This document shows, one piece after another, positions 8,952-56,200 of a stretch of 64,000 bases of DNA. The notes under the pieces were generated by a model. It was not told the origin of the DNA, did no database searches, and saw nothing but the letters and a program-made list of their open reading frames with translations. Made by a program: the position numbers and the translations under genes. Source of the DNA: Squalus acanthias. Its lineage: Eukaryota. The DNA lies in the NCBI GenBank assembly GCA_030390025.1, contig CM059449.1, positions 15,376,001 through 15,440,000 of the forward strand, in the 5' to 3' direction. The first letter of the stretch is position 1; every line of letters starts with the position of its first letter.

Positions 8952-9039
8952 GTAGCTGTTAATTTATTTGTTTTTTGTTTCCTTCGTCCCTCTTTGACAC
9001 AGTCTTCAAGACCGTGCAGGGTGTGCCATCAAAACCTAG

Positions 9040-26024: not shown

Positions 26025-26067
26025 ATGAATCCGAACATGACGATCTGGGCGGCGATAATTGTATCTG
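26025..26067 (+). CDS. NCR3: NCR3/NKp30-like gene A, leader exon
   Basis: ATG AAT CCG AAC ATG ACG ATC TGG GCG GCG ATA ATT GTA TCT G|gtaagg (MNPNMTIWAAIIVS). Phase 1. Resembles the gene B leader (TIW motif, same gtaagg donor). Confidence 0.75.
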
Positions 26068-30050: not shown

Positions 30051-30860
30051 TGAATTTAGAGTTCATTTGTCCTGGTAATTTATTAATTATTGTAAAGGTT
30101 TAGTGATGTCAATAACACACAGGGGCGGGTATGCCCCAGGGCCTGCGCCATCGGCCAGAACTTGCGTGCTATCAAACCAAATGGTGGTAAATCCAAAGAT
30201 ACTGAAATGGCAGAGGATTTGGAGGTTAATTGTCCACACCTACTGGCTGGGGTGGAACCCGATGCGGAATATTAATGGAATGTTTTTAGAACAATATTAA
30301 ACAGGTGGAAGTCAGGTAAGTGACCAAAGTCATAAAAAAGGGAGTGTGGTAAGAGAAAAACAAGATGGCTGCCTGGTCAAGTACAAAGGCAAATAAGACA
30401 TAAGTAAAAATGTGTTTTTGAATATAAATTAAAGGCACCTAATGCACAACAAGACAAAGGCAGGTACCGGGACCAGGGTAGAAAAGCCATTAAAACAGCT
30501 AAACGATTAATGGAAAAGCGGATGGTGGACCACTGTAGTAGTCGTGGAAAATGTCATTCATCTATGTGAAGAGTCAAAGGATCGTCAAAGACTATATTGG
30601 GCTTCTGAAAGATTCACAAGAACAGGTTGGAAAGGTCTCTCAGGGTCCGGCGGAGATACTAAATTAATACTTTGCACCAGTCTTCACTCAGACACGGCTA
30701 AATGGCGTTGTTAGCAATAACGTTGTTAATATTGATACCGTTTTAGACTGCAATGGAACTGAATATCAGGCGCTGCATATAACGGGCGGCCGATTTGATA
30801 CCGCCCGTTTTGCGCCACAATCTGAGATGGATTTCTAGGCCAATGAAACAGAATATCAGG

Positions 30861-32880
30861 TAGCAAAAAATATAAAAACAGATAGTAAGAGTTTTTATAG
30901 TTATATAAAAAGAAAAAGGGTGGCTAAAGTAAATGTTGGTCCCTTAGAGGATGAGACCGGGAAATTAATGGTGGGAAATATGGAGATGGCAAAAACACTG
31001 AATGAATATTTTGTATCAGTCTTTACAGTAGAGGACACTAAGAATATCCCAACACTGGACAAACAGGGGGCTATAGGGGGAGAGGAGCTAAACACGATCA
31101 AAATCACTAAGGAAGTGGTACTCGGTAAAATAATGGGACTCAAGGCGGATAAATCACCTGGACCTGATGGCTTACATCCTAGAGTCTTGAAGGAAGTGGC
31201 GGTAGGGATTGTAGATGCATTGGTAATAATTTTTCAAAACTCCCTGGATTCCGCTAAGGTCCCGGCAGACTGGAAAACTGCTAATGTAACACCCTTATTT
31301 AAAAAGGGCAGTAGACAGAAGGCTGGTAACTATAGACCGGTTAGCCTAACATCTGTGGTAGGTAAAATTTTGGAGTCCATTATTAAGGAAACAGTAACAG
31401 GACATTTGGATAATCATAATTTAATAGGACAAAGTCAGCATGGTTTTACGAAGGGGAAGTCATGTTTGACAAATTTGCTGGAGTTCTTTGAGGAAGTAAC
31501 ATATAGAGTGGATAAAGGGGAACCAGTGGACGTAGTGTATTTAGACTTCCAAAAGGCATTTGACAAGGTGCCACACAAAAGATTATTGCTTAAGGTAAAA
31601 AATCACGGAATTGGGGGTAATATTCTGGCATGGATAGAGGATTGGCTATCTAACAGAAAGCAAAGAGTTGGGATAAATGGTTCATTCTCAGACTGGCAAT
31701 CAGTAACTAGTGGTGTTCCACAGGGGTCAGTGCTGGGTCCCCAACTCTTCACAATCTATATTAACGATTTGGAGGAAGGGACCAAGTGTAACATATCAAA
31801 ATTTGCAGATGATACAAAGATGGGAGGGAAAGTAGTGAATGAGGAGGACATAAAAAACCTGCAAGGGGACATAGACAGGCTAAGTAAGTGGGCAGAGATT
31901 TGGCAGATGGAATACAACACTGGAAAGTGTGAGGTGATGCACTTTGGCAGGAAAAATCCTAGAGCAATTTATTATCTTAATGGCAAGAAACTGGAGAGTA
32001 CTGAAGTGCAAAGGGATCTGGGGGTCCTGGTGCACGAAACTCAAAAGGTTAGTATGCAGGTGCAGCAAGTGATTAAGAAGGCAAATGGAATGTTGGCTTT
32101 CATTGCTAGGGGGATAGAATATAAAAATAGGGAGGTATTGCTTCAGTTGTACAAGGTATTGGTGAGACCGCACCTGGAATACTGCATACAGTTTTGGTGT
32201 CCTTACTTAAGGAAAGACATCCTTGCTCTCGAGGCAGTGCAAAAAAGGTTCATTCGGTTAATCCCGGGGATGAGGGGGTGGTCATATGAGGAGAGGTTGG
32301 GTAGATTGGGACTCTACTCATTGGAGTTCAGAAGAATGAGAGGCGATCTTATTGAAACATATAAGATTGTGAAGGGGTTGGATCGGGTGGATGCGGGGAG
32401 GATGTTCCCGATGACGGGTGAGACGAGAACTAGGGGACATAGTCTTAGAATAAGGGGCTGCTCTTTCAAAACTGAGATGAGGAGGAACTACTTCACTCAG
32501 AGGGTGGTAGGTCCATGGAATATGCTGCCACAAAAAGCTGTAGAAGCTACAACATTAATTAAATTTAAAACAGAAATAGACAGTTTCCTAGAAGTAAAGG
32601 GCATTAAGGGTTACGGGGAGCGGGCAGGAATTTGGACATGAGTCTAGGTTCGGATCGGTCATGGCCCTGTGGGTAGTGGAGCGGGCCCAGGGACTGTGTA
32701 GCCTGATTCTGCTCCTATTTCGTGTGTGCAATTCTGTTAGATGCAGGAGATGGTTCTGTGATAGATAGTAGATTGGCGGTTAGGATGAGATCAGCCATGA
32801 TCTTATTGAATGGCGGAGCAGGCTCGAGGGGCCGATTGGCCTACTCCTGCTCCTATTTCTTATGTTCTTATGTTCTTATG
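30861..32880 (+). mobile_element. Young 5'-truncated CR1 LINE with uninterrupted 573-aa RT ORF
   Basis: ORF 30920-32641 contains [29 protein letters not shown] and FADD. Tail (ttcttatg)n. Absent from the paralogous site at ~35600. Confidence 0.95.
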
Positions 32881-33018
32881 ATGGCCGATTTGATACCGCC
32901 CGCTTTGCGTTGCCGCCCAAGATGAATTTCTAGCAACGCGTTTCCCATATTTCTGTTTTTATTTCAGATTTTTATCATTGGAGGTTTTTTTTAAAGTCAG
33001 ATATTTTCTATTTTATAG

Positions 33019-33360
33019 CAAGACAAACTTTTGGAAACATCACAGTGATCCAAAGCCCAGCCTCGATTATTACAACTGAGGGCGAGTCTGTGGTCCTAAA
33101 CTGCACGTATAATGGGCCAACCGGGATAGCCGCATACAAATGGTATCGAAACAGCCAAGGTGGGACTGAAGTGTCCAACAAAACATCACAGTACACAGGA
33201 CGTGTGATTCTACCGGATCAGAAGGCCTTCTTAGCAAGCAAAGACGCTTCACTACAAATAGCAGACACAAAGCTGTACGATTCAGGAACCTATTATTGCA
33301 AAGTGGAACACGTGGCATGTGGGGAAGCATATGGCCCGGGGACAAAACTTACTGTAATAA
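33019..33360 (+). CDS. NCR3: NCR3/NKp30-like gene A, VJ-type Ig exon copy 1
   Basis: ttatag|CA...ATA A|gtgagt, 342 bp, phase 1-1. V-set hallmarks LNC, W, DSGTYYC and germline J-like GPGTKLTV. EVSNKTSQYTGRV aligns by eye to NKp30 EVRNGTPEFRGRL. Confidence 0.88.
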
Positions 33361-33489
33361 GTGAGTATCGCTCCCTAGTTTTGGCGAAACAATTTGTAAG
33401 TGTGAAAGTGACCCCGATCATAATGAAATGCATGATTACACCCAGGTCTTTTTAATTGGAAATAGCTTTGTGATTTTTAAATAGAAAAG

Positions 33490-33838
33490 AAAAAGAAAGA
33501 CTTGCATTTATATAGCGCCTTTCACGACCACCAGACGTCCCAAAGTGCTTTACAGCCAATGAAGTACTTTTTTTTTGAAGCGGAGTCACTGTTGTATTGT
33601 AGGAAACGCGGCAGCCAATTTGCGCACGGCAAGCTCCCACAAACAGCAATGTGATAATGATCAGGTAATCTGTTTTAGTGATGTTGATTGAGGGATAAAT
33701 ATTGGCTCAGGACACCGGGAAGAACTCCCCTGCTCTTCTTCGAAATAGTGCCATGGGATCTTTTACGTCCACCTGAGAGAGCAGACGGGGCCTCGGTTTA
33801 ACATCTCATCCGAAAGACGGCACCTCCGACAGTACAGC
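33490..33838 (-). mobile_element. Deu-type SINE truncated at the tandem-duplication junction
   Basis: Same as 36215-36565 but lacks the tRNA head and is fused at 33838/33839 to a family-B LINE. Confidence 0.82.
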
Positions 33839-36565
33839 TGGACCAGCCACATAATTACTGTGGCAACAAGAGCAGGTCAGAGGCTAGGTATTCTGCGGCG
33901 AGTGTCTCACCTCCTGACAACCCAAAGCCTTTCTACCATCTGCAGGGCACAAGTAAGGAGTGTGATGGAATACTCTCCACTTGCCTGGATGAGTGCAGCT
34001 CCAACAACACTCAAGAAGCTCGACACCATCCAAGACAATGCAGCCCGCTTGATTGGCACCCTATCCACCTCCTTAAACATTCACTCCCTCCACCACCGGC
34101 ATACCGTGGCTGCAGTGTGTACTATCGACAAGATGCACTGCAGCAACTCGTCAAGGCTTCTTCAGCAGCACCTCCCAAACCCACGTCCTCCTCCACCTAG
34201 AAGGGCAAGGGCAGCAAGCGCATGGGAACACCACCAGCTCCAAGTTCCCCTCCAAGTTACACACCATCCTGATTTGGAAGTATATCGCCATTCCTTCATT
34301 GTCGCTGGGTCAAACTCCCGGAACTCCCTCCCTAACAGCACTGTGGGAGTATCTACACCACACGGACTGCAGCGGTTCAAGTAGGCGGCTCACCACTACC
34401 TTCGCAAGGGCAATTAGGGATGGGCAATAATGTAGGCCTTGCCAGCAATGCCCACATCCATCCCATAAATTAATTTAAAAAAATCTGCCTCCACCACCAT
34501 TTCAGGCAGTACATTGCAGATCATAACAACTCGCTGCATAAAAAAGTTTTTCCTCATGTCGCCTTTGGTTCTCCTGCCAATCAACTTAAATCTGTGTCCT
34601 CTGGTTCTCGACCATTCCGCCAATGGAACAGTTTCTATCTATCTACTCTGTCTAGACCCCTCATGATTTTGAACAACTCTTATCAAATTTCCTCTCAACC
34701 TTCTCTGCTCTAAGGAGAACAATCCCAGCTTCTCCAGTCTATCCATGTAACTGAAGTCCCTCATCCCTGGAACCATTCTTCTAAATCTGAATTTAGAACC
34801 AGTTCATTTGTCCTGGTAATTTATTAATTATTGTAAAGGTTTAGTGATGTCAATAACACACAGCGGGCGGGTATGTCCCAGGGCCTGCGCCACCGGCCAG
34901 CCCTTGCGTGCTATCAAACCAAATGGTGGTAAAACCAAAGATACTGAAATGGCAGAGGATTTGGAGGTTAATTGTCCAAACCTACTGGCTGGGGTGGAAA
35001 CCGATGCGGAATATAAATGGAATGTTTTTAGAACAATGTTAAACAAGTGGAAGTCAGGTAAGTGACCAAAGTCAAAAAAAGGGAGTGTGGTAAGAGAAAA
35101 ACAAGATGGCTGCCTGGTCAAGTACAAAGACAAATAAGACGTAAATAAAAATGTGTTTTTGAATATAAATTAAAGGCACCTAATGCACAACAAGACAAAG
35201 GCAGGTACCGGGACCAGGGTAGAAAAGCCATTAAAACAGCTAAACGATTAATGGAAAAGCGGATGGTGGACCACTGTAGTAGTCGTGGAAAATGTCATTC
35301 ATCTATGTGAAGAGTCAGAGGATCGTCAAAGACTCTATTGGGCTTCTGAAAGATTCACAAGAACAGGTTAGAAAGGTCTCTCAGGGTCCGGCGGAATACT
35401 AAATTAATACTTTGCACCAGTCTTCACTCAGACACGGCTAAATGGCGTTGTTAGCAATAACGTTTTATAATATTGATACCGTTTTAGACTGCAATGGAAC
35501 TGAATATCAGGCGCTGCATATAACGGGCGGCCGATCCGATACCGCCCGTTTTGCGCCACAATCTGAGATGGATTTCTCGGCCAATGAAACAGAATATCAG
35601 GTGCTGATGGCCGATTTGATACCGCCCGCTTTGCGTTGCCGCCCAGGATGAATTTCTAGCAACGCGTTTCCCATATTTCTGTTTTTATTTCAGATTTTTA
35701 TCATTGGAGGTTTTTTTTAAAGTCAGATATTTTCTATTTTATAGCAGGACAAACTTTTGGAAACATCACAGTGATCCAAAGCCCAGCCTCGATTATTACA
35801 ACTGAAGGCGAGACTGTGGTCCTAAACTGCACGTATAATGGACCAACCGGGATAGCCGCATACAAATGGTATCGAAACAGCCATGGTGGGACTGAAGTGT
35901 CCAACAAAACATCACAGTACACAGGACGTGTGATTCTACCGGATCAGAAGGCCTTCTTAGCAAGCAAAGACGCTTCACTACAAATAGCAGACACAAAGCT
36001 GTACGATTCAGGAACCTATTATTGCAAAGTGGAACACGTGGCATGTGGGGAAGGATATGGCCCGGGGACAAAACTTACTGTAACAAGTGAGTATCGCTCC
36101 CTAGTTTTGGCGAAACAATTTGTAAGTGTGAAAGTGACCGCGATCATAATGAAATGCATGATTACACCCAGGTCTTTTTAATTGGAAATAGCTTTGTGAT
36201 TTTTAAATAGAAAAGAAAAAGAGAGACTTGCATTTATATAGTGCCTTTCACGACCACCGGACGTCCCAAAGTGCTTTACAGCCAATGAAGTACTTTTTTT
36301 TTGAAGCGGAGTCACTGTTGTATTGTAGGAAACGCGGCAGCCAATTTGCGCACAGCAAGCTCCCACAAACAGCAATGTGATAATGATCAGGTAATCTGTT
36401 TTAGTGATGTTGATTGAGGGATAAATATTGGCCCAGGACACCAGGGAGAACGCCCCTGCTCTTCTTTGAAATAGTGCTATTGGATCTTCTATGTCCACCT
36501 GAGAGAGCAGACGGGGTCCTCGGTTTAACATCGCATCCGAAAGACGGTACCTCCGACAGTGCAGC
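33839..36565 (+). repeat. Tandem segmental duplication unit (~2.73 kb): LINE-B fragment, CR1 fragment, unique intron, V exon, SINE
   Basis: Collinear with 29338-33838 once the 2020-bp CR1 is removed. V-exon offset is 2726 bp. Confidence 0.92.
35745..36086 (+). CDS. NCR3: NCR3/NKp30-like gene A, VJ-type Ig exon copy 2
   Basis: ttatag|CA GGA...ACA A|gtgagt, 342 bp, phase 1-1, open. Seven substitutions versus copy 1. Confidence 0.88.
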
Positions 36566-38049: not shown

Positions 38050-38163
38050 CTCGAGGATACGCCACGAGGAACTCGCGGATTCTTTGGTACATCAGAACGT
38101 GGATAATGGTTGCACTGATCCTTACGGGGATCGTCCTCTCTCAGCGCATCTGCCCCATCAGAG
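38050..38163 (+). CDS. NCR3: NCR3-like gene A, stalk/transmembrane exon with intramembrane Arg
   Basis: ctcctcag|CT CGA...AGA G|gtactg, translating RGYATRNSRILWYIRTWIMVALILTGIVLSQRICPIR. Phase 1-1. Confidence 0.82.
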
Positions 38164-38349
38164 GTACTGACATTGAAGTTAAATTTACAGCATTTCACAT
38201 ACATAAAAGATGAAATCATAGAATTGCACTTGCAATGCGCACATCCTCATTTTATATATAAGTATTGATTACAGAAGTAGATGCTTTCAGAATATCAAAC
38301 TATGTCTTAAATTCAGTTTAATCTTTTTTTTCTCTCTTTCTACTGTCAG

Positions 38350-38383
38350 TTCATTGCACATTTGGCCCACTTCCAGAGTCAAG
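38350..38383 (+). CDS. NCR3: NCR3-like gene A, cytoplasmic mini-exon
   Basis: Long pyrimidine tract + cag|TTCATTGC...TCAAG|gttggt, translating VHCTFGPLPESR. Phase 1 to 2 fits both neighbours. Confidence 0.55.
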
Positions 38384-38485
38384 GTTGGTAAATGGAAACA
38401 TTACCGATTTTAAGTGAAGTCTATTTCGTCCCTGAAACACTTGCAAGTGATTAATTTATCTTCTTCTGGTTTTTTTCCCCGGAAG

Positions 38486-38528
38486 GGTCGAGTCCATCTA
38501 CGAAGACATTGATTTTACTGGTGGGTGA
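38486..38528 (+). CDS. NCR3: NCR3-like gene A, cytoplasmic exon with tyrosine motif
   Basis: ttttcccccggaag-type acceptor, then G GTC GAG TCC ATC TAC GAA GAC ATT GAT TTT ACT G (VESIYEDIDFT). Followed by either donor gtgggt at 38521 or read-through to TGA at 38526-38528. Confidence 0.55.
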
Positions 38529-38814
38529 CCAATCCTCAGGTCAAGTTTGCTTCCTTTAGCTTTCGTTAAAGTTACTACATTTTGCTTCGTTACACCAGGA
38601 ACGTCTCCTTGATTTATTGTTCCCTTCAATGTTTTTGTATCTGTTACTAAACGCTAATTATATACAGGAATAAGTTTGGAGTTGAGACACATTTTCGGGG
38701 AGGCGGCATTTCTCTGTATTTAATCCGCTGCATATCCGCCCTCTGAATAATTGATGGGGCATTGCAGAGTGTTACTTTTTGCCTACCTATTCTACACCTA
38801 GCATGACAATATTT

Positions 38815-39395
38815 ATAGGAACGTAGGAACAGAATGAGGCCATTCAGCCCCCCAGCCCATTCCGCCATTCAATTAGATCGTGGCTGATCTGTATCAGAAC
38901 CCCATTTACCCGCCTTGGTTCCGTAACCCTTAATACCCTTACCCAACAATAATCTATCAATCTCAGTACTGACGTTTTCAATTGACCCCCCAGCCTCAGC
39001 AGCTTTTTGGGGGAGAGAGTTCCAGATTTCCACTATCGTTTGTGTGAAGAAGTGCTTCCTGACATCACCTGAACGGCCTAGCTCTAATTTTAAGGTTATG
39101 CCCCCTTGTTTTGGACTCCACCACCAGAGGGAATAGTTTATCTCTATCTATCCTATCAAATACTTTACTAATCTTAAACACCTCGATGAAATCACCCCTT
39201 ATTCTTCTATATTCAAGGGAATAGAAGCCTAGTCTAAGCAACCTGTCCTCATAATTTAACCCTTTTTGCGCCGGTATTATTCTGGTCAATCTGCGCTGCT
39301 CCCCCTCCAAGGCCGATATATCCTTCCTGAGGTGCGGTGCCCAGATCTGAATACAGTTCTCCTGATGGGGTCTAACCACAGCTCTGTACAGCCCA
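38815..39395 (-). mobile_element. CR1 LINE 3' fragment (followed by a SINE head fragment to ~39482)
   Basis: Minus ORF with SLEYRRIRGDFIEVFK plus a CR1 tail. Confidence 0.82.
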
Positions 39396-39513
39396 GATTT
39401 TGTGCTCCAGTCTCTGGGATGGGAATTAAACCCACAACCTCCTGACTCAGAGGCGAGAGGGCTACCAACTGAGCCTTGGCTGAGACTGTGAGCAGAGATA
39501 TAGGTCTTTATGT

Positions 39514-39980
39514 ATTGTCGTATGAGGAGAGATTGGGTCGACAAGGCCTGTATTCACTAGAGTTTAAAAGAATGAGAGGGGACCTAATTGAAACGTATAA
39601 CATTCTGACAGGGCTAGACAGACTGGATGCAGGGAGGATGTTTCCCCTGGCTGGGGGGTCTAGAACGAGGGGTCACAGTCTCAGGATATGGGGTAGGACA
39701 TTTAGGACTGAGATGAGGAGAAATTTCTTCACTCAGAGGGTGGTGAACCTGTGGAATTCTCTACCACAGAAGGCTGTGGAGGCCAAGTCACTGAATATAT
39801 TTAAGAAGGAGATAGATAGATTTCTGGACACAAAAGGCATTAAGGGGTGTGGGGAGAGAGCGGGGATATGGTATTGAGATAGAGGATCAACCATGATCAT
39901 ATTGAATGGCGGAGCAGGCTCGAAGGGCCGAATGGCCGACTCCTGCTCCTATTTTTCTATGTTTCTCTGTGTTTCTTATA
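39514..39980 (+). mobile_element. CR1 LINE 3' fragment
   Basis: LSYEERL...WNSLPQKAVEA...ERAGIWY plus tail. Confidence 0.88.
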
Positions 39981-40114
39981 ACTATTTATTGTTAATCAAT
40001 ATTAAACTTCCTCGAATCTGGAGACTGCGTCTGTGCCATTCAACTAATCAAAATCAGTCTTACTGAAATATTTTAACAATATATGTTCTAATGTACATAT
40101 TTTTATTGAATTAG

Positions 40115-40245
40115 AAACAGGAGGAAGGTGGCAACTGTTCAGCATAGGAACTGTTGAAGTCGAATTAATAAAAATAGAGGACACCTCCAGACAAACAGCC
40201 GTGTGGAACCAGTGTGCTCCCGACGTTACTGAAGGCAGCGCTTAG
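40115..40245 (+). CDS. Possible terminal exon of NCR3-like gene A (tentative)
   Basis: ttag| with phase-1 open frame ETGGRWQLFS...EGSA*. The acceptor is weak and there is no homology support. Confidence 0.2.
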
Positions 40246-40637
40246 CAATTCTGCAGACTCTGCTGAATACAACGTTCTGGCTGCAGATGTCCGCGTTCCC
40301 GGGCACCACTGGAGCCGCACAGGCAGCCAGCCACTATTTGGAACGTCACTGATACACTGACGAAGCTTTTCTGTCCGTTGGGTCTCGTGATTTTCCGGTA
40401 AACCAGCCATTAGGTGGCAGAGGGCCATGGTAAATCCCGCCCCTATTTCCGACAAACACACAAAAGAATAACGGTTGTATGCGAATATTAGGGTAGGGAA
40501 GCTTATTGGTAAATTCTGTTATTTTAAAGAGTCCATTATGTTTGCAAAGACAAGGGCCTAGAAATTCCTCTCGGATGGTGGCGCAGAACGGGCAGTATCA
40601 GATCGGCCACGCGGCACCTGATATTCAATTCTGTTGC

Positions 40638-41343
40638 AGTCAAGGGCCCCAAACACTCCTTCCAGGTGAAACATTGATTTACTTGCACTTCTTTCAAACT
40701 ATTAAACTTTATTCGCTGCTCACAATGCAGTTTCCTCTACATTGGGGAGTCCAAACGCAGATTGGGTGATCACTTTGCAGAACACCTCTGTTCAGTCCGT
40801 AAGCGTGACCCCGAGCTTCTGGTCACCTGTCACTTTAAATCTCCGCTCCACTCCCCCTCTGACGTCTCTGTCCTCGGCTTCCTACACTGTTCCAATGAAA
40901 CTCAGTATAAGCTCAAGGAACAGCACCTCATCTTTCGATTAGGCACTTTACAGCCTTCTGGACACAACAATGAGTTCAACAATTTCAGATTGTCCCCATT
41001 TTTTCGGATGGCAGCTGTTGATGATTCTGCTATTCCCATTTACACCTATCCTAGAACCATATTTTGTTTCTTTACTCGTCCCATTACCATCTCCTTTCGT
41101 TTTGCACCATCATCCCTTTTGTCATTTAATCTCTCCTGCCCTCCACCCTATCACAGACCTTCCCTTTTGTTCTTTGCTCCCCTCTCCCCTTTCCCTGCCT
41201 CTGCACCTGCTTGAAATCGATTACATCTCCAGCTTTTTCCAGTTCTGATGAATGGTCATCGACCTGAAACGTTAACTCAGTTTCTCTCTTCACTGATGCT
41301 GCCTGACCTGCTGAGTATTTCCAGCATTTTCTGTTTTTATTTA
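40638..41343 (+). mobile_element. Penelope-like element 3' fragment (frameshifted GIY-YIG)
   Basis: Homologous to the reverse complement of 2715-3450 (GDHFAEH, EQHLIFRLGTLQPSG). Confidence 0.9.
41241..41277 (+). ncRNA. Minimal hammerhead ribozyme (slightly degenerate)
   Basis: AGTT-CTGATGA-AT-GGTC-ATC-GACC-T-GAAA-CGTT-AACT. Confidence 0.7.
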
Positions 41344-42879
41344 ACATTATATTTCATATCAACTAATCTGATATTTAATTAGTATCAGGATAACATCCCT
41401 AAAGTCACAAGGTATTTATATTTAATTGAGTATTGACGTATTTCGTTAATGCACATTTGATACCCTAATATTAATGATGTAATTAAAAGTGGCCTTTCAC
41501 TACTGGAACCTAGATTCAAATGCAACCCGCCTAATGGCACGATCACCTCATCTATCACCTGGCTGTATGCATTCTATGCAACATTTAGGTACCGGTGGTC
41601 AGGGGCCCGTAGCAGAAGTATGCCCAAAATCAGCACACCATATTTTTTGTAACAATATAGAGCGGAATTGACACTGGATGGAACAAATCGATTAAAATAT
41701 GTATGGGCTGGAAGATTTGTCATCATCTATATAAGGAGAGGCAAGAACACGACTTTCTACAGCGAGCAATGGAACTAAGTGACTGCATGTAAAATGTGAA
41801 AAGAATAAAATTAGGTTGCAGTGGGATCTCCCGGTCCATGTTCTTGTGCCGATAAGCTGTGCATAGACTTTGTAATTAATAAGTAACATCTTCTTACTAT
41901 TAAACCAATCTGTTGCATTTTATTCAATATACACGATGTCATCCTGAAGTTGATATACGTTTGAAATGATGACCACCACACATGCAATAGTCACATTTTT
42001 CCATTAAATTGGGGCTTCCCAAAATAATAGGGTCCCGCCCTCACCCGACTTTTCACTAGAGGTCATCCGGTAGCCACCAGGAGTGTCAGATTTAGCATAT
42101 TGCTCATTCCTCGTCCGGGGTTTCCAACACCAATTATAGTGACACTTGTTCATCCGGCACAGAGCGGGGCTCCAAACAGGGAATTTATAGCCCGGATGGC
42201 TCAATATATCTCGATCTTTGTCCAAAGGAAGATTCCATTAATTCCGGTCATTTCCAATGCGTTGTCAAAAGCGAGAAGACAGTCAGCACACTGAATGCTG
42301 CTCACGTGGTGGTTAAACCATGACTTTCATGTGATTGTTATACAGTTCTTTTAAAGTCAATCGGCACTGCAAATTGTCACTCTGAAACAGACAATTGTCA
42401 CTTAAATGCAAGCATAAAATTAATAGTCCGATATTGGCATTCTGTATTGGGTTGGTTTTCTGCGTCGCTGATCTGAAGGGTTTGAAGTAGAGGCTCAGAA
42501 GTGAACTACAGTCCGAAATAAAGCTTTGCCAACATGAAATTCCACAACAGATATTATAGAGTCTTGCTCCAAGCATTTCCCTCCGTGATATTTAGAACAC
42601 ATTTCATTCGACTCCAAATAAACATAACAGAACTTCAATTAAAACGGAACGCTCTCTAAATATGATACTATTAGGCTGTCAGCGGTCTATGTTATTAAGC
42701 AGCAAATCGGACACCAACTTCCGGCGTCCGCACAGGCGCAGTTAAAGCGGAAATTGTAAAGTTGCTATCCGAGTTTTCCTTCTCCGACTGTTTGCTATAA
42801 CAGGACCTCGCCGAGAGACTCGGCGTTCATTTACATTGTCGTAAGAAGCCATCTGGTTCACTAAATTCCTTTAGGCTCG

Positions 42880-45800
42880 AAGAGTGGTGTGGGAGGAAGG
42901 GGTTTCAGTTCATGGGGCACTGGCACCGGTACTGGGGAAAGAGGGAGCTGTTCCGTTGGGACGGGCTCCACTCAAACCGGGCTGGGACCAGTGTCCCAGC
43001 GAACTGAATAACTAGGGCAGTAGACAGGGCTTTAAACTAATGAAGGGGGGAGGTGGGGGGGGGGGGGTGCGGGAGGATTCAGGAAAGAGTACATTTAAAA
43101 GCAGTGAGAGAAATGTCAAGGTTCTAGAGCAGAGTAGAGTTTTGGGTAAAAATAATCAGAGTGGGTCAGGAAAGGGCAGAGAGAGTGACAAAGGTAATAA
43201 GGCATCAGTGACTAAGATGACATCAGGGAAAAAGAGAAATAAGTCAAAGGTGAAGGCACTATATCTGAATGCGCAAAGCATTTGCAACAAAATAGATGAA
43301 TTAATAGCGCAGATAGAAATTAACAGGTTTGATCTGATAGCCATAATGGAGACGTGGTTTCAAAGTGGCCAAGGTTGGGAACTAAATATTCCAGGATACT
43401 TAACTTTTAGAAAGGATAGTCAAAACGGAAAAGGAGGAGGGGTAGCCCTGATATTAAAGGATGGAATAAAGACAGTAGAGAGAAAGTATCTTAGCTCTGA
43501 AAATCAAGAAGTAGAATCAGTTTGGGTGGAGCTAAACAACAGCAAGGGGCAGCAAACATTGTTGGGAATTGTTTATAGGCCCCCAAGCAATAGTTGTAAT
43601 GTAGGGCAGAGTATAAATCAGGAAGTTGTAGGCACATGTAACAAGGGTAATACAGTAATCATGGGCGACTTTGATCTAAATATAGAGTGGGCAAACCGAA
43701 TTTGCAGTAATAGTGTGGAGGACGATTTCATGGAATGTATGCAAGATAGTTTTCTAGATCAGTATGTTAAGGAACCAACTAGGGAAGAGGCTATTTTAGG
43801 TCTAGTATTGTGCAACGAGCAAGGGTTAATTAATAACCTTGTCGTAAAGGGGCCTTTAGGGAAGAGTGACCATAATAGGGTAGAATTTTATAGTGAGTTT
43901 GAAAGTGACTTAGTTAAATCCGAAACTAGTGTCTTAAATCAAACAAGGCAAACTACATAGGTATGAGGGGCGAGTTGGCTAAGGTAGATTGGGAAACTAC
44001 ATTAAAATGTATGACTGTGGACGAGCAATGGCTAGCATTTAAAGAATTAATACATAATTTACAACAGATATACATTCCTTTAAGGCACAAAAACCCCACA
44101 GGAAAAGTGGTCCAACCGTGGCTAACAAGAGAATTTAAAGATAGTATTAGATCAAAGGAAGAGGCTTATAATGCTGCCAAAAAGAATAGTAAGCCTGAGG
44201 ATTGGGAGGATTTTAGAATTCAGCAAAGGAGGACCAAGAAATTGATACAGAAAGGGAAATTAGAATATGGGAGTAAACTAGCGAGAGACATAAAAATAGA
44301 CTGTAAAAACTTCTATAAGTAAGTAAAAGGAAAAGATTAGCGAAAGTAAATGTGGGTCTCTTACAGGCTGAGACAGGAGAAATTATAATGGGGAATAAGG
44401 AAATGGCAGGGAAATTAAACAAATACAAGTGTCTGTCTTCATGGAAGAAGACACAAACAATTTCCTGGAAATAGTAGAAAACCAAACGTCTAGCGAGAAT
44501 GAGGAACTGAAAGATATTAGTATTAATAAAAATGTAGTACTGGAGGAATTAATGGGACTGAAAGCCGATAAATCCCTTGGACCTGATGGCCTACATTCTA
44601 GGGTTTTGAAAGAGTTGGCTATAGAGGTAGTGGATGAATTGGTTGTCATTTTCTGAAATTCCATAGATTCTAGAACGGTTCCTGCGGATTGGAAGGTAGG
44701 AAATGTAACCACACTATTTAAGAAAGGTGGGAGAGAGAAAATAGGGAACTACAGACCAGTTAGCCTGACATCAGTAGTAGGGAAAATGCTAGAATCTATT
44801 ATTAAAGACGTGGTAATAGGGCACTTAGAAAATAATAATAGGATTGGGCAGAGTCAACACGGATTTATGAAAGGGAAATCGTGTTTGAGAAATTTATTAG
44901 AGTTTTTTGAGGTTGTAACTAGCAGACTAGATAAGGTGGGACCAGTGGACGTGGTTAATTTGGATTATCAGAAGGCATTCAATAAGGTGCAACACAAGAG
45001 GTTATAAACAAAATTAGGGCTCATGGGATTGGCGGTAATATACAAGGATGGACTGAGAATTGGTTAACGGACAGAAAACAGAGTAGGAATAAACGGGTCA
45101 TTTTCGGGTTCGCAAGCTGTAACTAGTGGGGTACCGCAAGGATCAATGCTTGGGCCTCAGCTATTCACAATCTACATCAATGATTTGGATGAGGGGACCA
45201 AATGTAATATATCAAAGTTTGCTGATGACACAAAGCTGGGCGGGAATGTAAGTAATGAGAAGGATGCAAGGAAGCTTCAAGGGGATATAGTCAGGTTAAA
45301 TGAATGGGCAAGAACATGACAAATGGAATATAATGTTGAGAAATGTGAAGTTATCCACTTTGGTAGGAAAAACAGAAAAGCAGAGTATTTTTTATATGGT
45401 GAGAGATTGGGAAATGTTGGTGTTCAGAGGGACCAGGATGTCCGTGTACAAGAAAGTTAACATGCAGGTACAGCATGAAACTAAGAAAGCAAATGTCGGC
45501 CGTTATTACACGAGGATTTGAGTATAAGAGTAAAGACCTCTTTCTGCAATTATATAGGGCCCTGGTGAGGCCAGACCTGGAGTATTGTGTACAGTTTTCG
45601 TCTCCTTACCTAAGAAAGGATATACTTGCCATACAGGGAATGCAACGAAGGTTCACCAGACTCGTTCCTGGGTCGGTGGGATTGTCCTATGAGGACAGAT
45701 TGAGTTGACTAGGCCTATATTCTCTGGAGGTGATCTCACTGAAACATACAACATTCTTACAGGGCTTGACAGGGTAGAACGAGGGATGGATGTTTCCCCT

Positions 45801-46127
45801 GGCTGGGGAGTCTAGAACTAGGGGTCACAGTCTCAGAATATAAGGTCGGCCATTTAGGACTGAGATGAGGAGAAATTTCTTCACTCAGAGGGTGGTGAAT
45901 CTTTCGAATTCTCTACCCCCAGAGGACAGTGGAGGCTCAGTCGTTGAGTATATTCAAGACAGAGATCGATAGATTTTTGAATATTAAGGGCGTGAAGGGA
46001 TATGGGGATAGTTCATAAAGTGGAGATGAGGTAGAAGATCAGCCATGATCTTATTGAATGGCGGAGCAGGCTGGTAGGGCCAAATGGCTTACTGCTGCTC
46101 CTATTTCTTATGTTCTTATGTTCTTAT
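42880..46127 (+). mobile_element. Long CR1 LINE: ORF1 C-terminus plus complete but disrupted ORF2 (APE endonuclease + RT)
   Basis: Endonuclease motifs LYLNAQSI, IMETW, VYRPP, MGDF and SDH in 43040-43960. RT pieces lie downstream with stops and frameshifts. Tail (ttcttatg)n. Confidence 0.92.
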
Positions 46128-46342
46128 GAAATCTGCCGTCCTTACCCGGTCTGGCCTACATGTGACTGCAGGCCCACAGCAATGTGGTTGACTCTTAACT
46201 GCCCCTCTGAAATGGCCTAGCAAGCCACTCAGCTATATTCAAGAAGACGGCTCACCACCACCTTCTCGAGGGCAATTTGAGATGGGCAATAAATGGTGGC
46301 CTTGCCAGCGATGCCCACATCCCAGGAACGAATAAAAAAAAA
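46128..46342 (+). mobile_element. SINE family 2, 3' half
   Basis: aaatctgccgtccttacccggtctggcc body plus family-B tail. Confidence 0.72.
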
Positions 46343-48078: not shown

Positions 48079-49257
48079 GAACACATTTTCAAATCTAAGA
48101 CGGACCGAAGTAATTAAACAGCAGGATAACCAGTGGTCCACACTGCAGCTATTTAATGCAGCAGCTCACCAACATGAAAATATTAAAGAGTCTTCGTGCT
48201 AAAGGTCTATAATGTAAGTGTCTTTGAATGTTTCGCAAATATGGAACTGCCAACTTGATCAAGTTGCCGCACTGAGACTTGTGTATTGCCAAGAATGACT
48301 TGCAGGGACTTGGTCTGGACGGAAGACAATTTAACACGGCAGTCTTCGTATTACAGTGAGTCTTTGTATCGGAGTGAGTCTGTGCTTTCCATCCATCCGC
48401 CCAGCTTCACTGTGCCATCATTATCTTCTTCCTGCTGAAGTCAAAAGAAGTGAAGGCACATGCCGAATTAGTAAAACATAATTTGGGAAATCTCCGAACG
48501 GTTATTCAGTAAGCAATAGTTCCAGATTGGTGGAGAATAGAATTCACTTTAGTATCAGGAATAGGATTTTTGGCAAGTCAAGCTCTTCACTTTATGAAGG
48601 AAACATTGAAGATTTTAAAACCTGTTCTAAATTCCGAGAGACTTGAAGTAAATGAGCAGAGGAAAATGTGCTATTCCAAACACAATCCTAAATTCTTCTG
48701 ATCAATAACCAGTGTTTCTTCTTCGTCCTGTTTATTTTAATTTCACTCCAGATGTTTTGACTTAACGGTACTCTTGAAACTTCTATACGAACTGTTGCCA
48801 ATGTTTTATCTTGAAATGCGTGATACAGTGGTTTTTTGACCACCAGTTAATGAGCAAAATGCTTGATTCGCTTTATTTTACTTGACTAAATGAGTTTGAC
48901 TCCCAATTTGGCTTAGAAATAAGTAGTTATGTACAATTTAATCTTACTCAAGCGCGCTACATAGAGTAGAACAAGGCAGCACCTACTGGAACATAACATG
49001 GCTTAGCATTGTTTTTCCTACGGACCAAGATGGGGAGGCTAATTGTTCATCGTACTGATCACTCTGAGGTGGATGGGGTTTATTTTACAAGGATACAAGC
49101 GTTATGCCATGTAAGACACGGTATATTATTCTGCTACTAAGGTAGGAAAGCATCTCCTTAAAGCCACACAATACTATTATTGCTAAGTAAACACAGACTC
49201 AGGTCAATCTGAAAATGTCCAACATCAAACAATTAAACTCCGATGGAAATGTAGTCA

Positions 49258-49517
49258 GTAGGAACAGCCGAGGTGCATGGGAGCAGCATCACCTCCAAGT
49301 TCCCCTCCAAGTCACACGCCATCCCAAATTGGACATATATCGTCTTTCCTTCAATGTCGCTGGGTCAAAAATCCTGGAACTCTCTACCTCACAGCATTTT
49401 GGGAGTACCTTCACCCCACGGACTGCAGTGACTCAAGGAGGGGGCCCACCCCAACTTCTCAAGGGCAACTAGGGATGAACTAGCGGCGCCCACTTCCCCA
49501 GAACGAATAAAATAAAA
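49258..49517 (+). mobile_element. LINE family B 3' fragment (degenerate)
   Basis: GAWEQHHLQVPLQVT homology plus tail. Confidence 0.75.
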
Positions 49518-50804
49518 GTTTGCATGCATCCCATGGGGAAGCCTTATTTCTCCTGAATGCATTGAGTCGAAAGATGGCCCTGCGAGAAGACCGTAAGGAA
49601 ATGGAAAATCACTATTATCATAGGAAGTGGGCAGTCTGAGGTCGGCGTTAGATACAGTATTTGGGGGAAGAGAAAAAGGTCCCACATGGCTTGAATGTTA
49701 AGTACTTCCATTGCCTCCTTGATGAGGAAACAGATTCACCAAAATAAAATTTCAAAAGTTAATTTCAGTAGTAAAAGAGGTAGCTGGCAATCACATTTAT
49801 TGTAAATCACAATCATAGTGTAAAAATCTGGTGCGTTTGTAACCACCTTATTCAGATTTCCAGTTCGAGTATTACCGTGGTTTAGCCTTTCAGCAATAGT
49901 ACCAGATATTCATCTTTACTGCCACTATTATGACCTCAAATTAGATGTAAATGACGGAAACAATTATTTATTTTATGCAAATTTGTGCCAGATTAGAATG
50001 ATTGAAACATAACATATGGGCTCCACTGCTTTACCCGAAAATATTGCATTTATTGATGGGTTTATGAGTGGATACTTGACAAAAGCAAGACATTACGCTG
50101 TCGGAGACGAGGATACCAGCTCTTTACATGTTTACCTGAAAATGTGCTCTTTGTTTTAGCTTTATATAAAACGCGGGTTAGTTCTTCCTCAAAAATAACA
50201 GAGAAATGAATTTCAGAGCAAGTTATTACCATTTGTAGATTACTTGTCAACTGATGGATTTGGGTGTTGGTGACGATGGGGCAGGGGCACCGTACACTTA
50301 TTTCCCGTGAGGAGATATCGCATATGAACATTTTGCAGGGGGAGAAACACCAGTTCTGGTTTTCGGTATAATTCTTAACAGCAACACTTACAGCAGTTCA
50401 CGATGCTCAATGATAAACATGCATTAGAAAATGAAATAATGAAACACAGTAACAAATCTCATCACAAGGAAAATAGAAAGTGTGAGGATAAATAGGACAA
50501 TGGGAAAAAGACCAGCATTTAATGAAGCATCATACCCTTACATGGGGAACAGTACCTTAACTGTACCGCAATTAATACAACAGTGAATTGGTAGAGTTTC
50601 CGACAGAAATGGGTTAAAGATTGCATAAATTATGGGCTGTACATAATGTTTGTGCTACGCTACATACCCTATTTTAAACATTCGCTCGAGACCTTTGATC
50701 ATGTAGTTCTGTACAACACGATTTAAGAGAAATATATCCTAGAATGTCCAAAACAATCTTGGGCTACAGAGTAAAAATCAAATAACAATTGATATCATAT
50801 CGGC

Positions 50805-51266
50805 GTCAGCCATGGCTCAGTTAGTAGCACTCTCGCTTCTGAGTGAGAAGATTGTGGGCTCATGTCCCACTCCAGAGACTTGAGCACAAAAATCTAGGCT
50901 GACACTCCAGTGTCCTACTGAGGGGGTGCTGCACTATCGGAGGTGCCGTCTTTCGGATGAGATGTTAAACCGAGGCCCCGTCTGCTCTCTCAGGTGGCGG
51001 TAAAAGATCCCATGGCACTATTGCGAAGAAGAGCAGGGGAGTTATCCCCGGTGTCCTGGCCAATATTGATCCCTCAATCAACATCACTAAAGCAGATAAT
51101 CTGGTCATTATCACATTGCTGCTTGTGGGAGCTTGCTGTGCAGAAATTGGCTGCTGCGTTTCTTACATTACAACAGTGACTCCACTTCATAAGTTCTTCA
51201 TTGGTTGTAAAGCGCTTTGGATGTCCGGTGGTCGTGAAATGCGCTATATAAATGCAAGTCTTTTTT
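50805..51266 (+). mobile_element. Full-length Deu-type tRNA SINE
   Basis: Head gtcagccatggctcagttagtagc, core, and tail gcgctatataaatgcaagtc. Confidence 0.85.
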
Positions 51267-51999
51267 GTAGTTTAGACTGGCTTATAAACCTTTGGATCAT
51301 TTATTTCTGCTAATTTGTCACTGTCCTTCAATTATATAACTGACTATTGCAGGATTCTCAAAGAATTCCCATGCGGGAAACACGACTGTGTTATCTGTTG
51401 CGTCCGTAGCAGTTTAATTAAATAACTCTGAACTGCAGGTTACAAACACTAGGGGAGAATTTTCGCTGGGGTATCTCCCGCCGTAACGTCGGCAGAAGTC
51501 GGCAGAAATTCCAGGCGACCCGGCAGAAACTATCAAGCGGTGTCAATCCAGCTCTGCTTCATTTTTTTTTAATTGCGGTATTTCAAAATTGTTAATATCA
51601 CCCTTATGAGACTCGGAAAGTGTATTAGTCCTGCTGTCATGTGTTAAGTAGTAATTAATTATGGTAGCACTTAATTGGACTTTGCAAGAACTGATGAATA
51701 TAAATATCCCTCAACACAAAGATGCAGTATTGCGTTTACGGCCTTCTTTAAGAATGGCCAAATTAATTATTTGGAAATGTGCTATGGAGCTCAAAGTAGA
51801 TTCAGTTTTCAGACACACAATAAGTTAGTTACCGCACGATACAATCCTACAATTTTCCCCTTGTAAGTGGAATCGCCTAGAATTTCCGCGGAGGTGCAGA
51901 GAAATCTTGGGAAAGCAGTGATAGTGTACAGCGAAAGCTCAAACTGAAACTGCTTTGCAGTCAGCAGTTTTCAGTAAAATAACAGATAACAAATAAAGT

Positions 52000-52445
52000 A
52001 TACATATCAAGAAAGGATGAACAGGCTGGGTCTCTTTTCTCTTGAAAAGAAAAAGGCTGAGGGCTGAACTAACAGAGGTCTTTAAAATTATGAAAGGTTT
52101 TGATCGAGTGGGTACAGAGAGAATGTTTCCACTTGTTGGAAAGAGCAAAACTAGAGGACATCAATATGAGATAGTCACCAAGAAATCCAGTAGGGAATTC
52201 AGAAGAAACTTCTTCAGCCAGAGAGTGGTGAAAATGTGGAACTCGCTACCACAGGGAGTGGCTGAGGCGAATAGTACAGATGCATTTAACGGGAGGCTAG
52301 AGAAGCATATGAGGGAAAAGGGAATAGAGGTTTATGCTGATAGATTTAGATGAGGAAAGACGGGAGGATGCTCGAGTGGAGCATAAATGCTGGCATGGAC
52401 TGGTTGGGCCGAATGGCCTGTTTCTGTGCCTTATGTCCTATGTAA
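52000..52445 (+). mobile_element. CR1 LINE 3' fragment
   Basis: Same subfamily as 24390-25185. Confidence 0.85.
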
Positions 52446-52771
52446 CTGGATGCTTTGGAGGAATTATCTTCCCCTGTGTTTCCTTGGACATCCCGAGCAC
52501 TTTGCAAACCCATATCATCTCAATTTATGTGTTTTGAGAGTAGGTGTTCTCCTCTCCCGGCTTTAGAAACACTTAACGTTGGGGGAGAGGGAGCGAGCCT
52601 TTATCAAACGTGCTCGCAGCTCAGTCTTGAACTGAGACTGTTACAGAGCCAGACTTAAAGAAGCCAGACATTGTCTGTGCGGTTCTGCTTGGCTGGAAAC
52701 CAAGTGCAGCTACTGGTATCTTCAGTGTGACTGCATTCTACATTCGTTAAACAATAAACTTTTCTTTTTCT

Positions 52772-53148
52772 TCATTCACGGGATGTGGGCATCGCTGGCA
52801 AGGCCCGCATTTATTGCCCATCCATAATTGCCCTTGAGTGGCTTGCCAGTCCATTTCAGAGGGCAGTTAAGAGTCAACCACATTGCTCTGGGTCTGGAGT
52901 CAAATATAGGCCAGACCGGGTAAGCACAGCAGATTTCCTTCCCTAAAGGACATCAGTGAACCAGATGGTTTTTTACGACAATCCGGTAGTTACATGCTCA
53001 CCATTACTGATGCTGGCTTTTTATTCCAGATTTATTTAACTGAATTCAAATTCCCCAGCTGCCGTGGTGGGATTTAAACTCTTGTCCTCGGATAATTAGT
53101 CCAGGCCTCTGGATTACCAGTCCAGTAACATTACCACTATGCTACCGT
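52772..53148 (-). mobile_element. Near full-length tRNA-derived SINE family 2
   Basis: Minus-strand head cggtagcatagtggtaatg...gagtttaaatccc (A/B-box-like). 3' tail shared with family-B LINE. Confidence 0.78.
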
Positions 53149-53259
53149 TCGCTCATTTTATGGAACCAGAGTTTAACCGTTGTGCTAAATAATTATAAAA
53201 TAGTTTTACATGCGTCCCAAACAGTAAATAATACATATATTGACATTCACTACCAGTAC

Positions 53260-53407
53260 CTCTTCTGACGGAAGCAGATAGCGACGATGATTCCAAAAAC
53301 GACCAGTAAAGCTATCACTGCAGCACGGACACACCATAGTGTCCGGACGTCTCTGAAGAAGCTTGTAGTCTCTTCGTTGCTCGTTATCTTAAATTCCGTT
53401 TCGGCAC
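53260..53407 (-). CDS. NCR3: NCR3/NKp30-like gene B, stalk/transmembrane exon with intramembrane Arg
   Basis: ccatag|GT GCC...AAG AG|gtactg, translating AETEFKITSNEETTSFFRDVRTLWCVRAAVIALLVVFGIIVAICFRQK. Phase 1-2. Confidence 0.85.
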
Positions 53408-53914
53408 CTATGGAATAACAGGTCTAAAAAATCTCCATATCGCTTTCTGGACCAAGGCAACGAGTACGGCAAGGGGGCTGAGACGCCTTCCGGGCTGGAT
53501 GTTCGTCTTCACCAGCCTGGGCGGTAAACTGGCAGGGCACACCTCTCGCACTTTAAATAACCCGTCTACTTTTCATTCAATTAATTACCGCCCAGGCGGT
53601 AAAAGCGAAAATCTGTCCCATTTATTTTATTACCACGGGTCGCATTTTCCTCAACAGTACTCAAATATGAAGACTTGTTTCTTGGTGCCTTGTTTATTGT
53701 CCCACTCTTTGCAGTTTCCTCTTCCCTTCACCCCTTCCCGCTGTCTCTCACGAACACTACCCATACATCAGAGATAGACAGAAACATCTGCGCCAGTACC
53801 TGTTCAGATTAACAACGGACAAAGTAAAGGCAATTGCACAACTTCATATCAGTCACCTATGGTGGAAAATAAACAACCTTATGTTTGCAGATGATGTCAT
53901 CTACGCATCGAGCG

Positions 53915-54320
53915 AGATTATTGGGTGCAATTCTGGCACTACACTTTAGAAGTTGCGCCAGGGTCTTGGAGCGGAGGCAGAGGAGATTTATTAGAAATGT
54001 ACCAGGAATTAGGCTATTTCGGTTATCAGGAGAGACTTGAGAAGCTGGGATTAGATCAGAGCAGATAAGGTTCTGGGTAGATTTAATAGAGGTGTTCAAA
54101 ATTATTTAAAGGTTTTGATAGAAAAGATAGGGAGGATCTATTTCCCATGGCAGGAGGGTTGGTAACCAGAGGACACAGATTTAAGGTGATTGACAAAAAA
54201 GCCAGGCATGAGATTGGGAGCATTTTTTGTTATGATGTGGAATGCACTGAGTGAAAGGGCGATGGAAGCAGATTCAATAGTAACTTTCAAAAGGGAGTTT
54301 GATAAATACTTAAAAATAAA
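53915..54320 (+). mobile_element. Degenerate CR1 3' fragment
   Basis: Homology to 23460-23880. Confidence 0.7.
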
Positions 54321-54450
54321 GCTTTGGGCTGCTTATAATAACCAGGCTAAGACTCGTGCTCAGCAATCTCACCAACAACGCGGTCAGGGTTCGCAGGTTA
54401 ATGCCGCCAAGAGAAGCTTCTAGACTATAAATGTTCAGTATCAAACTTAC

Positions 54451-54792
54451 CCCGTTTCACGGTCACTGTTGTCCCGGGTCCGTCTGCTGCAGGGAATCCC
54501 ACGAGCTGCACTTTGCAGAAATAGAACCCGGTATCTTCCGGTTTCAGCTGGATTATTCTAATGGACGCGTCTCTCCTCTGTCTGAAATCCTCTTCACTTG
54601 CACCGAACACCCTGCCTCTGTATTCCGCTGTATTGTTGGAAACTTCATTTCCCTGTTTGGTGCCTCGGTGCCACGTGTAGCTGCCGATTCCTGTGGGACC
54701 CTCATATCTACAGAGCAGGTCCGCTGTCTGTCCCGCGGTTTTGGTGAGTGATAGCGGGCTCTGAATTACGGCGATGTTTCCAACAGTAACTG
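54451..54792 (-). CDS. NCR3: NCR3/NKp30-like gene B, VJ-type Ig exon
   Basis: ctacag|CA GTT...CGG G|gtaagt, 342 bp. Translates NIAVIQSP...LLCRYEGPTGIGSYTWHRG...GNEVSNNTAEYRGRV...DTGFYFCKVQLVGFPAADGPGTTVTV. IGSYTW and GNEVSN.T.EYRGR match NKp30 IGSVTW and GKEVRNGTPEFRGR. Confidence 0.9.
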
Positions 54793-56148
54793 CTGTAGAT
54801 GGGTGAAGTCAATACAATACACAGTGGGGTGAGATCTTTTGCCCTGGAAAGTACTGCTTCCTAAATTAGGCAGAAATGCTCAGCCTTTAATGGAGTCCTT
54901 AACCCTTTAAAAATTATCAGTATTGTTACAGTTGAGCGAGGCGTGCGCGCCGCCACTCTGCCGAATGGCAATTTTCAGGATACATTGTTCAAATATATTC
55001 AGAAAAAAATCGGATATTAATGCAGTGACATTGACTGTATATAGCCCGTGTTGTTAGTTGGTGCAATAAAACATAGCACTAAAGGGAGTTAAAAAAGCCT
55101 GTGACGAGAAAATGTCCCTCAACCCATCAAAGATCAACACTAACTCCCACCACGGCATTTAATTGTATTTTGAGTAGCCCCAATATTTACCTCGATTGCT
55201 CGCTGTATACATTCCTCCAAGTTTTAGACAAACACGTTGTTCTTGCTTTTAGTTTAAAATTTCATTTTTCGCTAATTTCCATTGATGGATCTGATTCTAC
55301 TTTCATGGCTTCGAAGGAATAATTGGGGCGCACTTTATCTATACCATTTATGATGAAGTTCTCCCCCCCCCCACCCCACCCCCGCGCCCCGCCGCTCCCG
55401 GCACTTAACTGCCTTATTTAAGATTGAAACACTTACGCTTCGCTTATCTTTTCTCACGTCTCATCTCTTTACACTTCGGAAGGGTTTTGCTGCTCCTCTA
55501 TGCACCCTTTCCAGTCCAGATATATTTTTGTGTCATCGATAGGAAAGCTGAAGTTCGGATTCTAAGAATGGTTGACCCGTGCATTTAGAAGCTTAGCTCA
55601 GTTCTCTGACACTATCATGTCTTTATATTCTAACACACTGTGAGCGCTTTTTAAAAAACTGCTTCGTTACATCCTTTATATATCGGCTGTTAATCATCTT
55701 ATTATCACGTCAGAACTAAGAAATAAAAGGATTGGGAATAAATTATATTAGGAAATTGCTCGGATCTGTATTATTTCAAAATGTTGATTCAATTCCTTGC
55801 AATTTTGGGCCATTGACTTAAGATGGGCTCCAGGTTTGATTGTCGGCGGGGGTTGCTAAACAATACTGGATCAGTGATCATTGCGCGTGTATGTATTTGA
55901 AATCGGCACATTTCTCAGTCACGTCAACCATTTCAAGTTTGGAAAGATGTCCTTTCGGTACCATTGATTTTTTTTTAATGCTCAACGCCCTATTTATTTA
56001 TCCGCGTGCGCATCATAAATATCTAAGAGTACTTGAATTTAACAAATGAAACAATATAAGAATGCGCTACAAGAGGAGGTTGCTATCTTTCCGGTTTGTA
56101 CTCTCATCTTGCAATTGGAAACCGACATAACATAAAATAGTTCCTTAC

Positions 56149-56200
56149 CGGCGATCATGGCCGTTACCCAGATTGTTCCAATAACATGGCTAAAGTTCAT
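56149..56200 (-). CDS. NCR3: NCR3/NKp30-like gene B, leader exon
   Basis: gacaccATG (good Kozak context), MNFSHVIGTIWVTAMIA, then G|gtaagg. Phase 1. Confidence 0.82.

Follow-up and report, generated by a model that had tools for sequence, protein, structure and literature searches.

A stretch of the Squalus acanthias genome raises the question of whether a shark receptor of the activating type, with an arginine in its transmembrane (TM) segment, carries in its own tail a tyrosine motif for signalling, and of what kind such a motif would be. The stretch analysed (the window) comprises 64,000 nucleotides, C26:15376001-15440000 of the 3.7-Gb genome. An earlier note had read in it a receptor combining activating and tyrosine-based signalling in the manner of KIR2DL4 or NKp44, with the tail sequence SIYEDI as an ITIM-like motif; the layout of arginine plus tyrosine stands, but the identification of the tyrosine as an ITIM found no support. 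We regard it as an evenly balanced proposition that the gene encodes an adaptor-coupled NCR3-family receptor whose single YEDI tyrosine is a co-activating docking site, not an ITIM. The features on which this reading rests are collected in Table 1.

Table 1. Features of the studied gene and of its candidate 3' ends (window coordinates).
Feature	Position	Strand	Remarks
Leader (signal peptide) exon	26025..26067	+	phase-1 donor CTG/gtaagg; from leader scan of 9000-33020
First VJ-type IgV exon	33019..33360	+	open, phase 1 to 1; Pfam V-set E 1.9e-14
Second VJ-type IgV exon	35745..36086	+	Pfam V-set E 1.6e-14
Stalk and TM exon	38050..38163	+	phase 1 to 1
Cassette exon A (spacer)	38350..38383	+	34 nt, phase 1 to 2
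Cassette exon B	38486..38520	+	35 nt, phase 2 to 1; motif SIYEDIDF
Exon B donor read-through to stop	38520..38528	+	two Gly, then TGA (38526-38528); candidate protein end
Candidate last exon with AEYNVL	40257..40361	+	AEYNVL at 40262-40279; probably not a real exon

By the evidence of its sequence, the studied gene is a receptor gene of the shark NCR3/NKp30 family. Its VJ-type IgV domain lies in a single open exon of 342 nt (V-set coverage 1-109), and this single-exon, non-rearranging domain, a feature of the NCR3 family, is closest to NKp30, the four best PDB matches of the second V exon all being NKp30/NCR3 (E 2.8e-13 to 5.1e-13). The best single-domain database matches are shark proteins, several of them NCR3 or NCR3-like and others SIRP-like or unnamed; the best single-V identities are 46-52%, with 52% between the second V exon and the horn shark NCR3-like protein P0001. 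The V family is common to the nurse shark proteins QTT61898.1 and QTT61904.1 and to horn shark models such as XP_067865363.1. A quick tree was built with 86 V rows, of which the S. acanthias genome supplied 62 and databases 24; in it the V exons of the studied gene form a separate branch (SH-aLRT 99) within an unresolved group that includes three other shark subfamilies. The lineage shares only about 50% identity with the nearest subfamilies, and none of the 24 database rows is its orthologue. Orthologue searches returned one match among 101 longer candidates and none among two near-length candidates, no sequence above 52% identity was present among the best 150 representatives, and a search of the ESM Atlas gave generic V-set clusters only. 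Because orthologues in other species were not found in the searches made, selection on YEDI cannot be claimed.

The two V exons are about 97% identical, the first showing two synonymous and five non-synonymous codon changes, and the second has an alternative acceptor 3 nt further on, at 35748. The V tandem duplication spans 30259-33838 and 35000-36565, and a reverse-transcriptase element with a 600-codon open frame (30839-32641; Pfam RVT_1) lies within the first duplicated copy. The studied gene may encode a two-V receptor; with the last donor read through, the protein models have 191 residues with one V or 305 with two. We infer that the leader exon, which is similar to the leaders of shark NCR3-like proteins and shows 0/43 differences from its counterpart in the duplicate of the gene, belongs to this transcription unit.

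As far as sequence relationships indicate, the gene is one member of a large shark NCR3-like (NKp30-like) cluster, a conclusion drawn jointly from the V matches on C26, the shark database relatives, the NKp30 structures and the MHC exons. With its V exon as query, 106 matches were obtained in the genome, 70 of them on C26 at 13.47-17.14 Mb. The same contig holds 15 of the 46 MHC class I-family exon matches, at 30.7-38.4 Mb, and the MHC linkage that characterizes the NCR3/NKp30 family is here seen at the chromosome level only, over a distance of at least 15 Mb. Near C26:14.95 Mb (about 14.93-14.97 Mb) lies a duplicate of the block 13838-54913 that is 97-99% identical to it and has one V exon only. 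This segmental duplication is recent and contains the studied gene and a neighbouring gene with a TM arginine. DNA searches found two copies, those of the studied gene and the duplicate, of the stretch from the TM exon to exon B, and likewise only two of the stretch 40060-40520. Pieces of a TRIM-like gene, with a RING domain and a TRIM coiled-coil, were also observed on the plus strand of the window at 2370-2855 and 8676-8960.

The TM segment (ILWYIR..., 38079-38138) has an arginine near its N-terminal end, as the earlier note had observed. The codon (38094-38096) specifies position 6 of the best 21-residue hydrophobic window, and in relatives the arginine is at position 7 (possum), 6 (newt, bichir and catshark) or 5 (bamboo shark). 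Its place in the N-terminal third of the helix is a feature of the NCR3 family that is shared by position only; nine of the 15 database proteins examined have a basic residue in this window and six have none, and with BLASTP no alignment between the TM exon and the newt protein was obtained. The DNA of the TM exon does align with the Arg-TM exon of the neighbouring gene (53260-53407, minus strand; z 6.7, 0/200 shuffles). Adaptor TM exons with Asp, one CD3zeta-like and one FcRgamma-like, are both encoded in the same genome; we take them to be those of CD247 and FCER1G. The TM arginine of the studied gene would be expected to pair with the TM Asp of such CD3zeta or FcRgamma adaptors, with which that of NKp30 is described in a review as associating (PMC6514059).

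Exons A and B, which the earlier note had recognised as phase-compatible mini-exons, join in frame and are homologous to a two-exon tyrosine cassette that recurs in the cluster. SIYEDI occupies 38493-38510, with the Tyr codon at 38499-38501, and the intron between the two exons measures 102 nt, compared with 89-112 nt in other cassettes. A DNA profile built from nine cassette units of other genes, the studied gene being left out, gave a single match in the window; with bias correction it extends over 38447-38529 (E 8.7e-7), covering exon B and its acceptor only, and without correction over 38324-38529 (E 1.2e-9), spanning both exons. The best decoy, in the reversed window, reached E 0.85, and a profile from inhibitory-type copies alone missed exon B (E 0.71). 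Pairwise comparison with the L042 unit, which has a 35-nt NEPIYDEP exon, a 102-nt intron and a near-identical acceptor, gave z 6.8; four other cassette comparisons gave 4.1, 3.6, 2.0 and 0.6, the last two weak, and controls 1.3 and 0.0. Exon A is supported by the uncorrected profile run, its phase, the intron length and a donor context identical to that of the cassette exons of L042 and L076, which are 22 nt long. Neither exon differs from the duplicate, a comparison that is uninformative at a background of about 2%. Exon B appears well supported and exon A moderately so, and we infer that YEDI is translated.

A search of 542 kb for such units yielded 23 matches at E < 1e-3, of which 21 could be parsed and two could not. 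Two parsed units lack the tyrosine and 19 have it, 17 of the latter belonging to neither the studied gene nor its duplicate. The isoleucine at +3 is kept in 14 of these 17 homologous tyrosines. The earlier note had looked to conservation of the YEDI exon among other elasmobranch NCR3 genes: in the homologous exons the cassette and its Ile at +3 do recur, but the ITIM position -2 is not kept. Genes of the inhibitory subfamily have one cassette unit after the TM exon, with Y-(A/S/T)-x-I in the same exon. Within the part of the cluster that was fetched, a TM arginine and the tyrosine unit occur together only in the studied gene and its duplicate.

The closest cassette copies, in L042 and L076, carry YDEP, YDEI, YEGI and YADI. 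The tail of L042 is made of repeated units. Each starts with a spacer exon of 22 nt (phase 1 to 2), which an intron of roughly 100 nt separates from a tyrosine exon of 35-50 nt (phase 2 to 1). L042 falls in one clade with horn shark P0156, a predicted RefSeq protein that has YDDI, YDEI and YHDI on a neutral TM and no LQYATL-type exon. Both P0156 and the nurse shark protein P0026, which ends NPLYADM plus five residues, read through cassette units in frame. The tail cassette is thus common to these two proteins and the studied gene, but they have a neutral TM in place of the Arg-TM, and the fetched shark proteins with a charged TM, unlike the studied gene, have short tails without such a motif.

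Several other tail types were observed in the cluster. L042 (6400-1880, minus strand; G000:C26:15453880-15458400) and L076 show an NCR3-like gene type with a neutral TM and a tail of tandem two-exon units, four of which have acidic tyrosine motifs, and a receptor of this type looks like its own multi-tyrosine adaptor. The Arg-TM genes at window 48250-56200 (minus strand), with copies in L038, L039, L040 and L043, have V domains in the clade of the ITIM-bearing neutral-TM genes and a TM exon resembling that of the studied gene; to judge from these resemblances, the Arg-TM and ITIM-bearing genes are likely to be paired activating and inhibitory receptors that arose by the swapping of exons. Four extra nucleotides in the TM exon of L038-L040 shift the frame. 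A last exon bearing a pair of ITIM-type motifs (LQYATL and VLYASV types) was seen in eleven copies in neutral-TM NCR3-like genes, the loci being L044, L045, L049, L056, L062-L066 and L083-L085. NCR3-like genes with a TM lysine, matching nurse shark P0072, are present at L041:8805-8903 and L054:6413-6502 and possibly couple to a different adaptor. At L037:3243-3690 an NCR3-like gene has an arginine just before the TM core and a two-exon unit whose 29-nt second exon is without tyrosine.

The exon B donor may splice onward, since its 9 nt are identical in eight of 19 other parsed copies. A scan of 38580-46200 gave 34 candidate phase-1 acceptors, but no exon of the family could be recognised behind any of them. 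The simplest option for the protein end, which we presume here, is that the donor at 38521 is read through as far as the stop (38526-38528); nurse shark P0026 probably has an equivalent ending. Most likely only a few residues follow YEDI in the tail. A decayed inhibitory ITIM exon starting at 40115 was considered and rejected as unsupported: its acceptors are in register, but the alignments gave z 1.2 and 1.6, scores reached by 19/200 and 16/200 shuffles, and profiles from 11 inhibitory and five Arg-subfamily last exons gave no match there.

What the YEDI tyrosine would do can be read in four ways. SIYEDI meets the consensus (S/I/V/L)xYxx(I/V/L), and to this extent its description as an ITIM was correct; however, about 6% of tyrosines fit that consensus, both in the window (237 of 3725 Tyr codons, counted over all six frames) and in the fetched proteins (280 of 4678), so the match alone is near chance, and only two of the 17 homologous cassette tyrosines fit, these copies coming from two subfamilies and not being independent. 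SHP-2 SH2 domains, according to two studies, favour hydrophobic side chains at -2, +1, +3 and +5 and tolerate acidic ones at +2 and +4 (PMC12151841, PMC8007070). SIYEDIDF fits at +2, +3, +4 and +5, where D-I-D-F matches the ITIM region of PD-1 and natural ligands of the SHP-2 N-SH2 domain, but misses with Ser at -2 and Glu at +1, both outside the SHP-2 library preferences (PMC12151841). The clear ITIM pairs of the cluster lie in a different terminal exon, in neutral-TM genes; a profile from 11 inhibitory last exons detected no copy of it for the studied gene, which is without a second ITIM. A dual activating and inhibitory receptor like KIR2DL4, with SIYEDI as a single weak ITIM recruiting SHP-2 or SHP-1, has a precedent in the TM arginine and one ITIM of KIR2DL4 itself, but the inhibition exerted by that receptor is described as very weak (PMC3422731) and the NKp44-1 motif recruited no SHP-1, SHP-2 or SHIP in a study cited by a review (PMC6514059). 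The ITIM label for SIYEDI appears weak, and we think this reading improbable. Far more doubtful still is the notion that YEDI supplies the first half of an ITAM divided by an intron. AEYNVL does lie downstream where the earlier note had placed it, and a phase-compatible join of 38520 to 40257 would bring it in frame as YxxI-x7-YxxL, with canonical ITAM spacing and an acidic residue at -3; an AATAAA follows at 40701. The frame is obtained only via a weak acceptor (40255-40256; 10 of 18 pyrimidines, with an AG 11 nt upstream), however, and all 16 family acceptors examined are stronger (11-17 of 18). In the 97%-identical duplicate the acceptor AG is AA and YNVL is YKVV, the stretch differs at 5 of 102 positions, with four of the five changed codons non-synonymous, against 1.7-2.2% in introns, and 7 of the 569 AGs in 38600-46000 would produce the spacing of an ITAM by chance. 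AEYNVL is probably non-coding, and it is very hard to credit that a reusable cassette tyrosine was completed by a newly recruited exon into a split ITAM (YEDI-x7-YNVL). Were it so, the gene would encode an NK-type receptor that carries an ITAM itself in addition to the Arg through which it binds an adaptor, and would offer an evolutionary snapshot in which the second half is present in one duplicate and absent from the other.

The gene could also be no more than an activating receptor of the NCR3 type, or a duplicate that is silent, in which YEDI is a passenger from the family ancestor that is skipped, frameshifted or functionless. The alternative donor to which the earlier note had pointed is real: it lies at +4 (38388), has a good consensus and by frameshift removes the tyrosine, as do all exon-skipping forms. 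The profile found no cassette match in the neighbouring Arg-TM subfamily, and the tyrosine has been lost in two of ten parsed copies of the inhibitory subfamily, so the cassette can be dispensable. The V exon differs from that of the duplicate by five non-synonymous and three synonymous changes. RNA for the studied gene was not found in four of 20 candidate runs, whose matches fell for the most part on SINE/LINE repeats while the V, TM and exon B bins had no coverage, a result uninformative either way. Yet the four splice sites of the cassette, both phases and Y-x-x-I are all intact despite the roughly 50% divergence of the V lineage, and both gene copies retain open frames. We judge a passenger unlikely, if slightly less so than a weak ITIM, and rank the co-activating docking site above both, because motifs of the acid-acid-aliphatic type bind activating adaptors and the case for SIYEDI as an ITIM is weak. 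In its Tyr-acid-acid-aliphatic core YEDI resembles ADAP YDDV/YDDI and Src-type pYEEI, and it would seem more like ligands of Src, SLP-76 and Nck; those motifs belong to cytosolic adaptors or synthetic ligands, whereas YEDI is a putative docking site in a receptor tail. In pull-downs with an ADAP pYDDV peptide, SLP-76, Nck and PLCgamma were recovered, and the partners of pYDDI were the same (PMC2908683); the c-Src SH2 domain is reported to bind a pY-EEI peptide with a KD of 160 nM (PMC10065799).

With YEDI as a co-activating docking site, ligand binding would cluster the receptor, whose TM arginine would be paired with the TM Asp of CD3zeta or FcRgamma for signalling. A Src-family kinase would then phosphorylate the ITAMs of the adaptor together with the tyrosine of YEDI, which lies some 23 residues from the membrane on its inner side, and pYEDI would bind an SH2 protein that prefers acids (a Src-family kinase, SLP-76/BLNK or Nck), tuning the activating signal.

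The likeness to mammalian NKp30 (NCR3) extends to the single-exon VJ-type IgV, the arginine at the same TM depth and the presence of MHC class I-like exons on the same contig. The studied gene departs from mammalian NKp30 in its tyrosine cassette, its possible second V exon and its membership of a cluster with 70 V matches. Among the literature titles and abstracts searched, which did not cover Kinlein 2021, the main shark NCR3 gene paper, none was found that describes shark NCR3 tails; that paper reportedly describes the shark NCR3 family. The tails of human NCRs other than NKp44 are stated in a review to have no inherent signalling capacity (PMC6514059). KIR2DL4 and NKp44-1 are similar to the studied gene in having a charged TM for an ITAM adaptor and one tail tyrosine within the ITIM consensus, and the sources consulted describe both as mainly activating receptors (PMC3422731, PMC6514059); they are unrelated genes with ITIM-type motifs (ILYHTV in NKp44-1), whereas YEDI is acidic at +1 and +2. 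The principle is not new, since a charged TM and a tail tyrosine already occur together in KIR2DL4 and NKp44. If the preferred reading is true, a shark receptor of the NKp30 type supplements adaptor-based activation with a tyrosine docking site of its own, and a family linked to the MHC assembles its activating, inhibitory and multi-tyrosine tails out of common exon blocks, namely an Arg-TM exon, a tyrosine cassette and an ITIM exon, which would add detail on the evolution of paired NK receptors.
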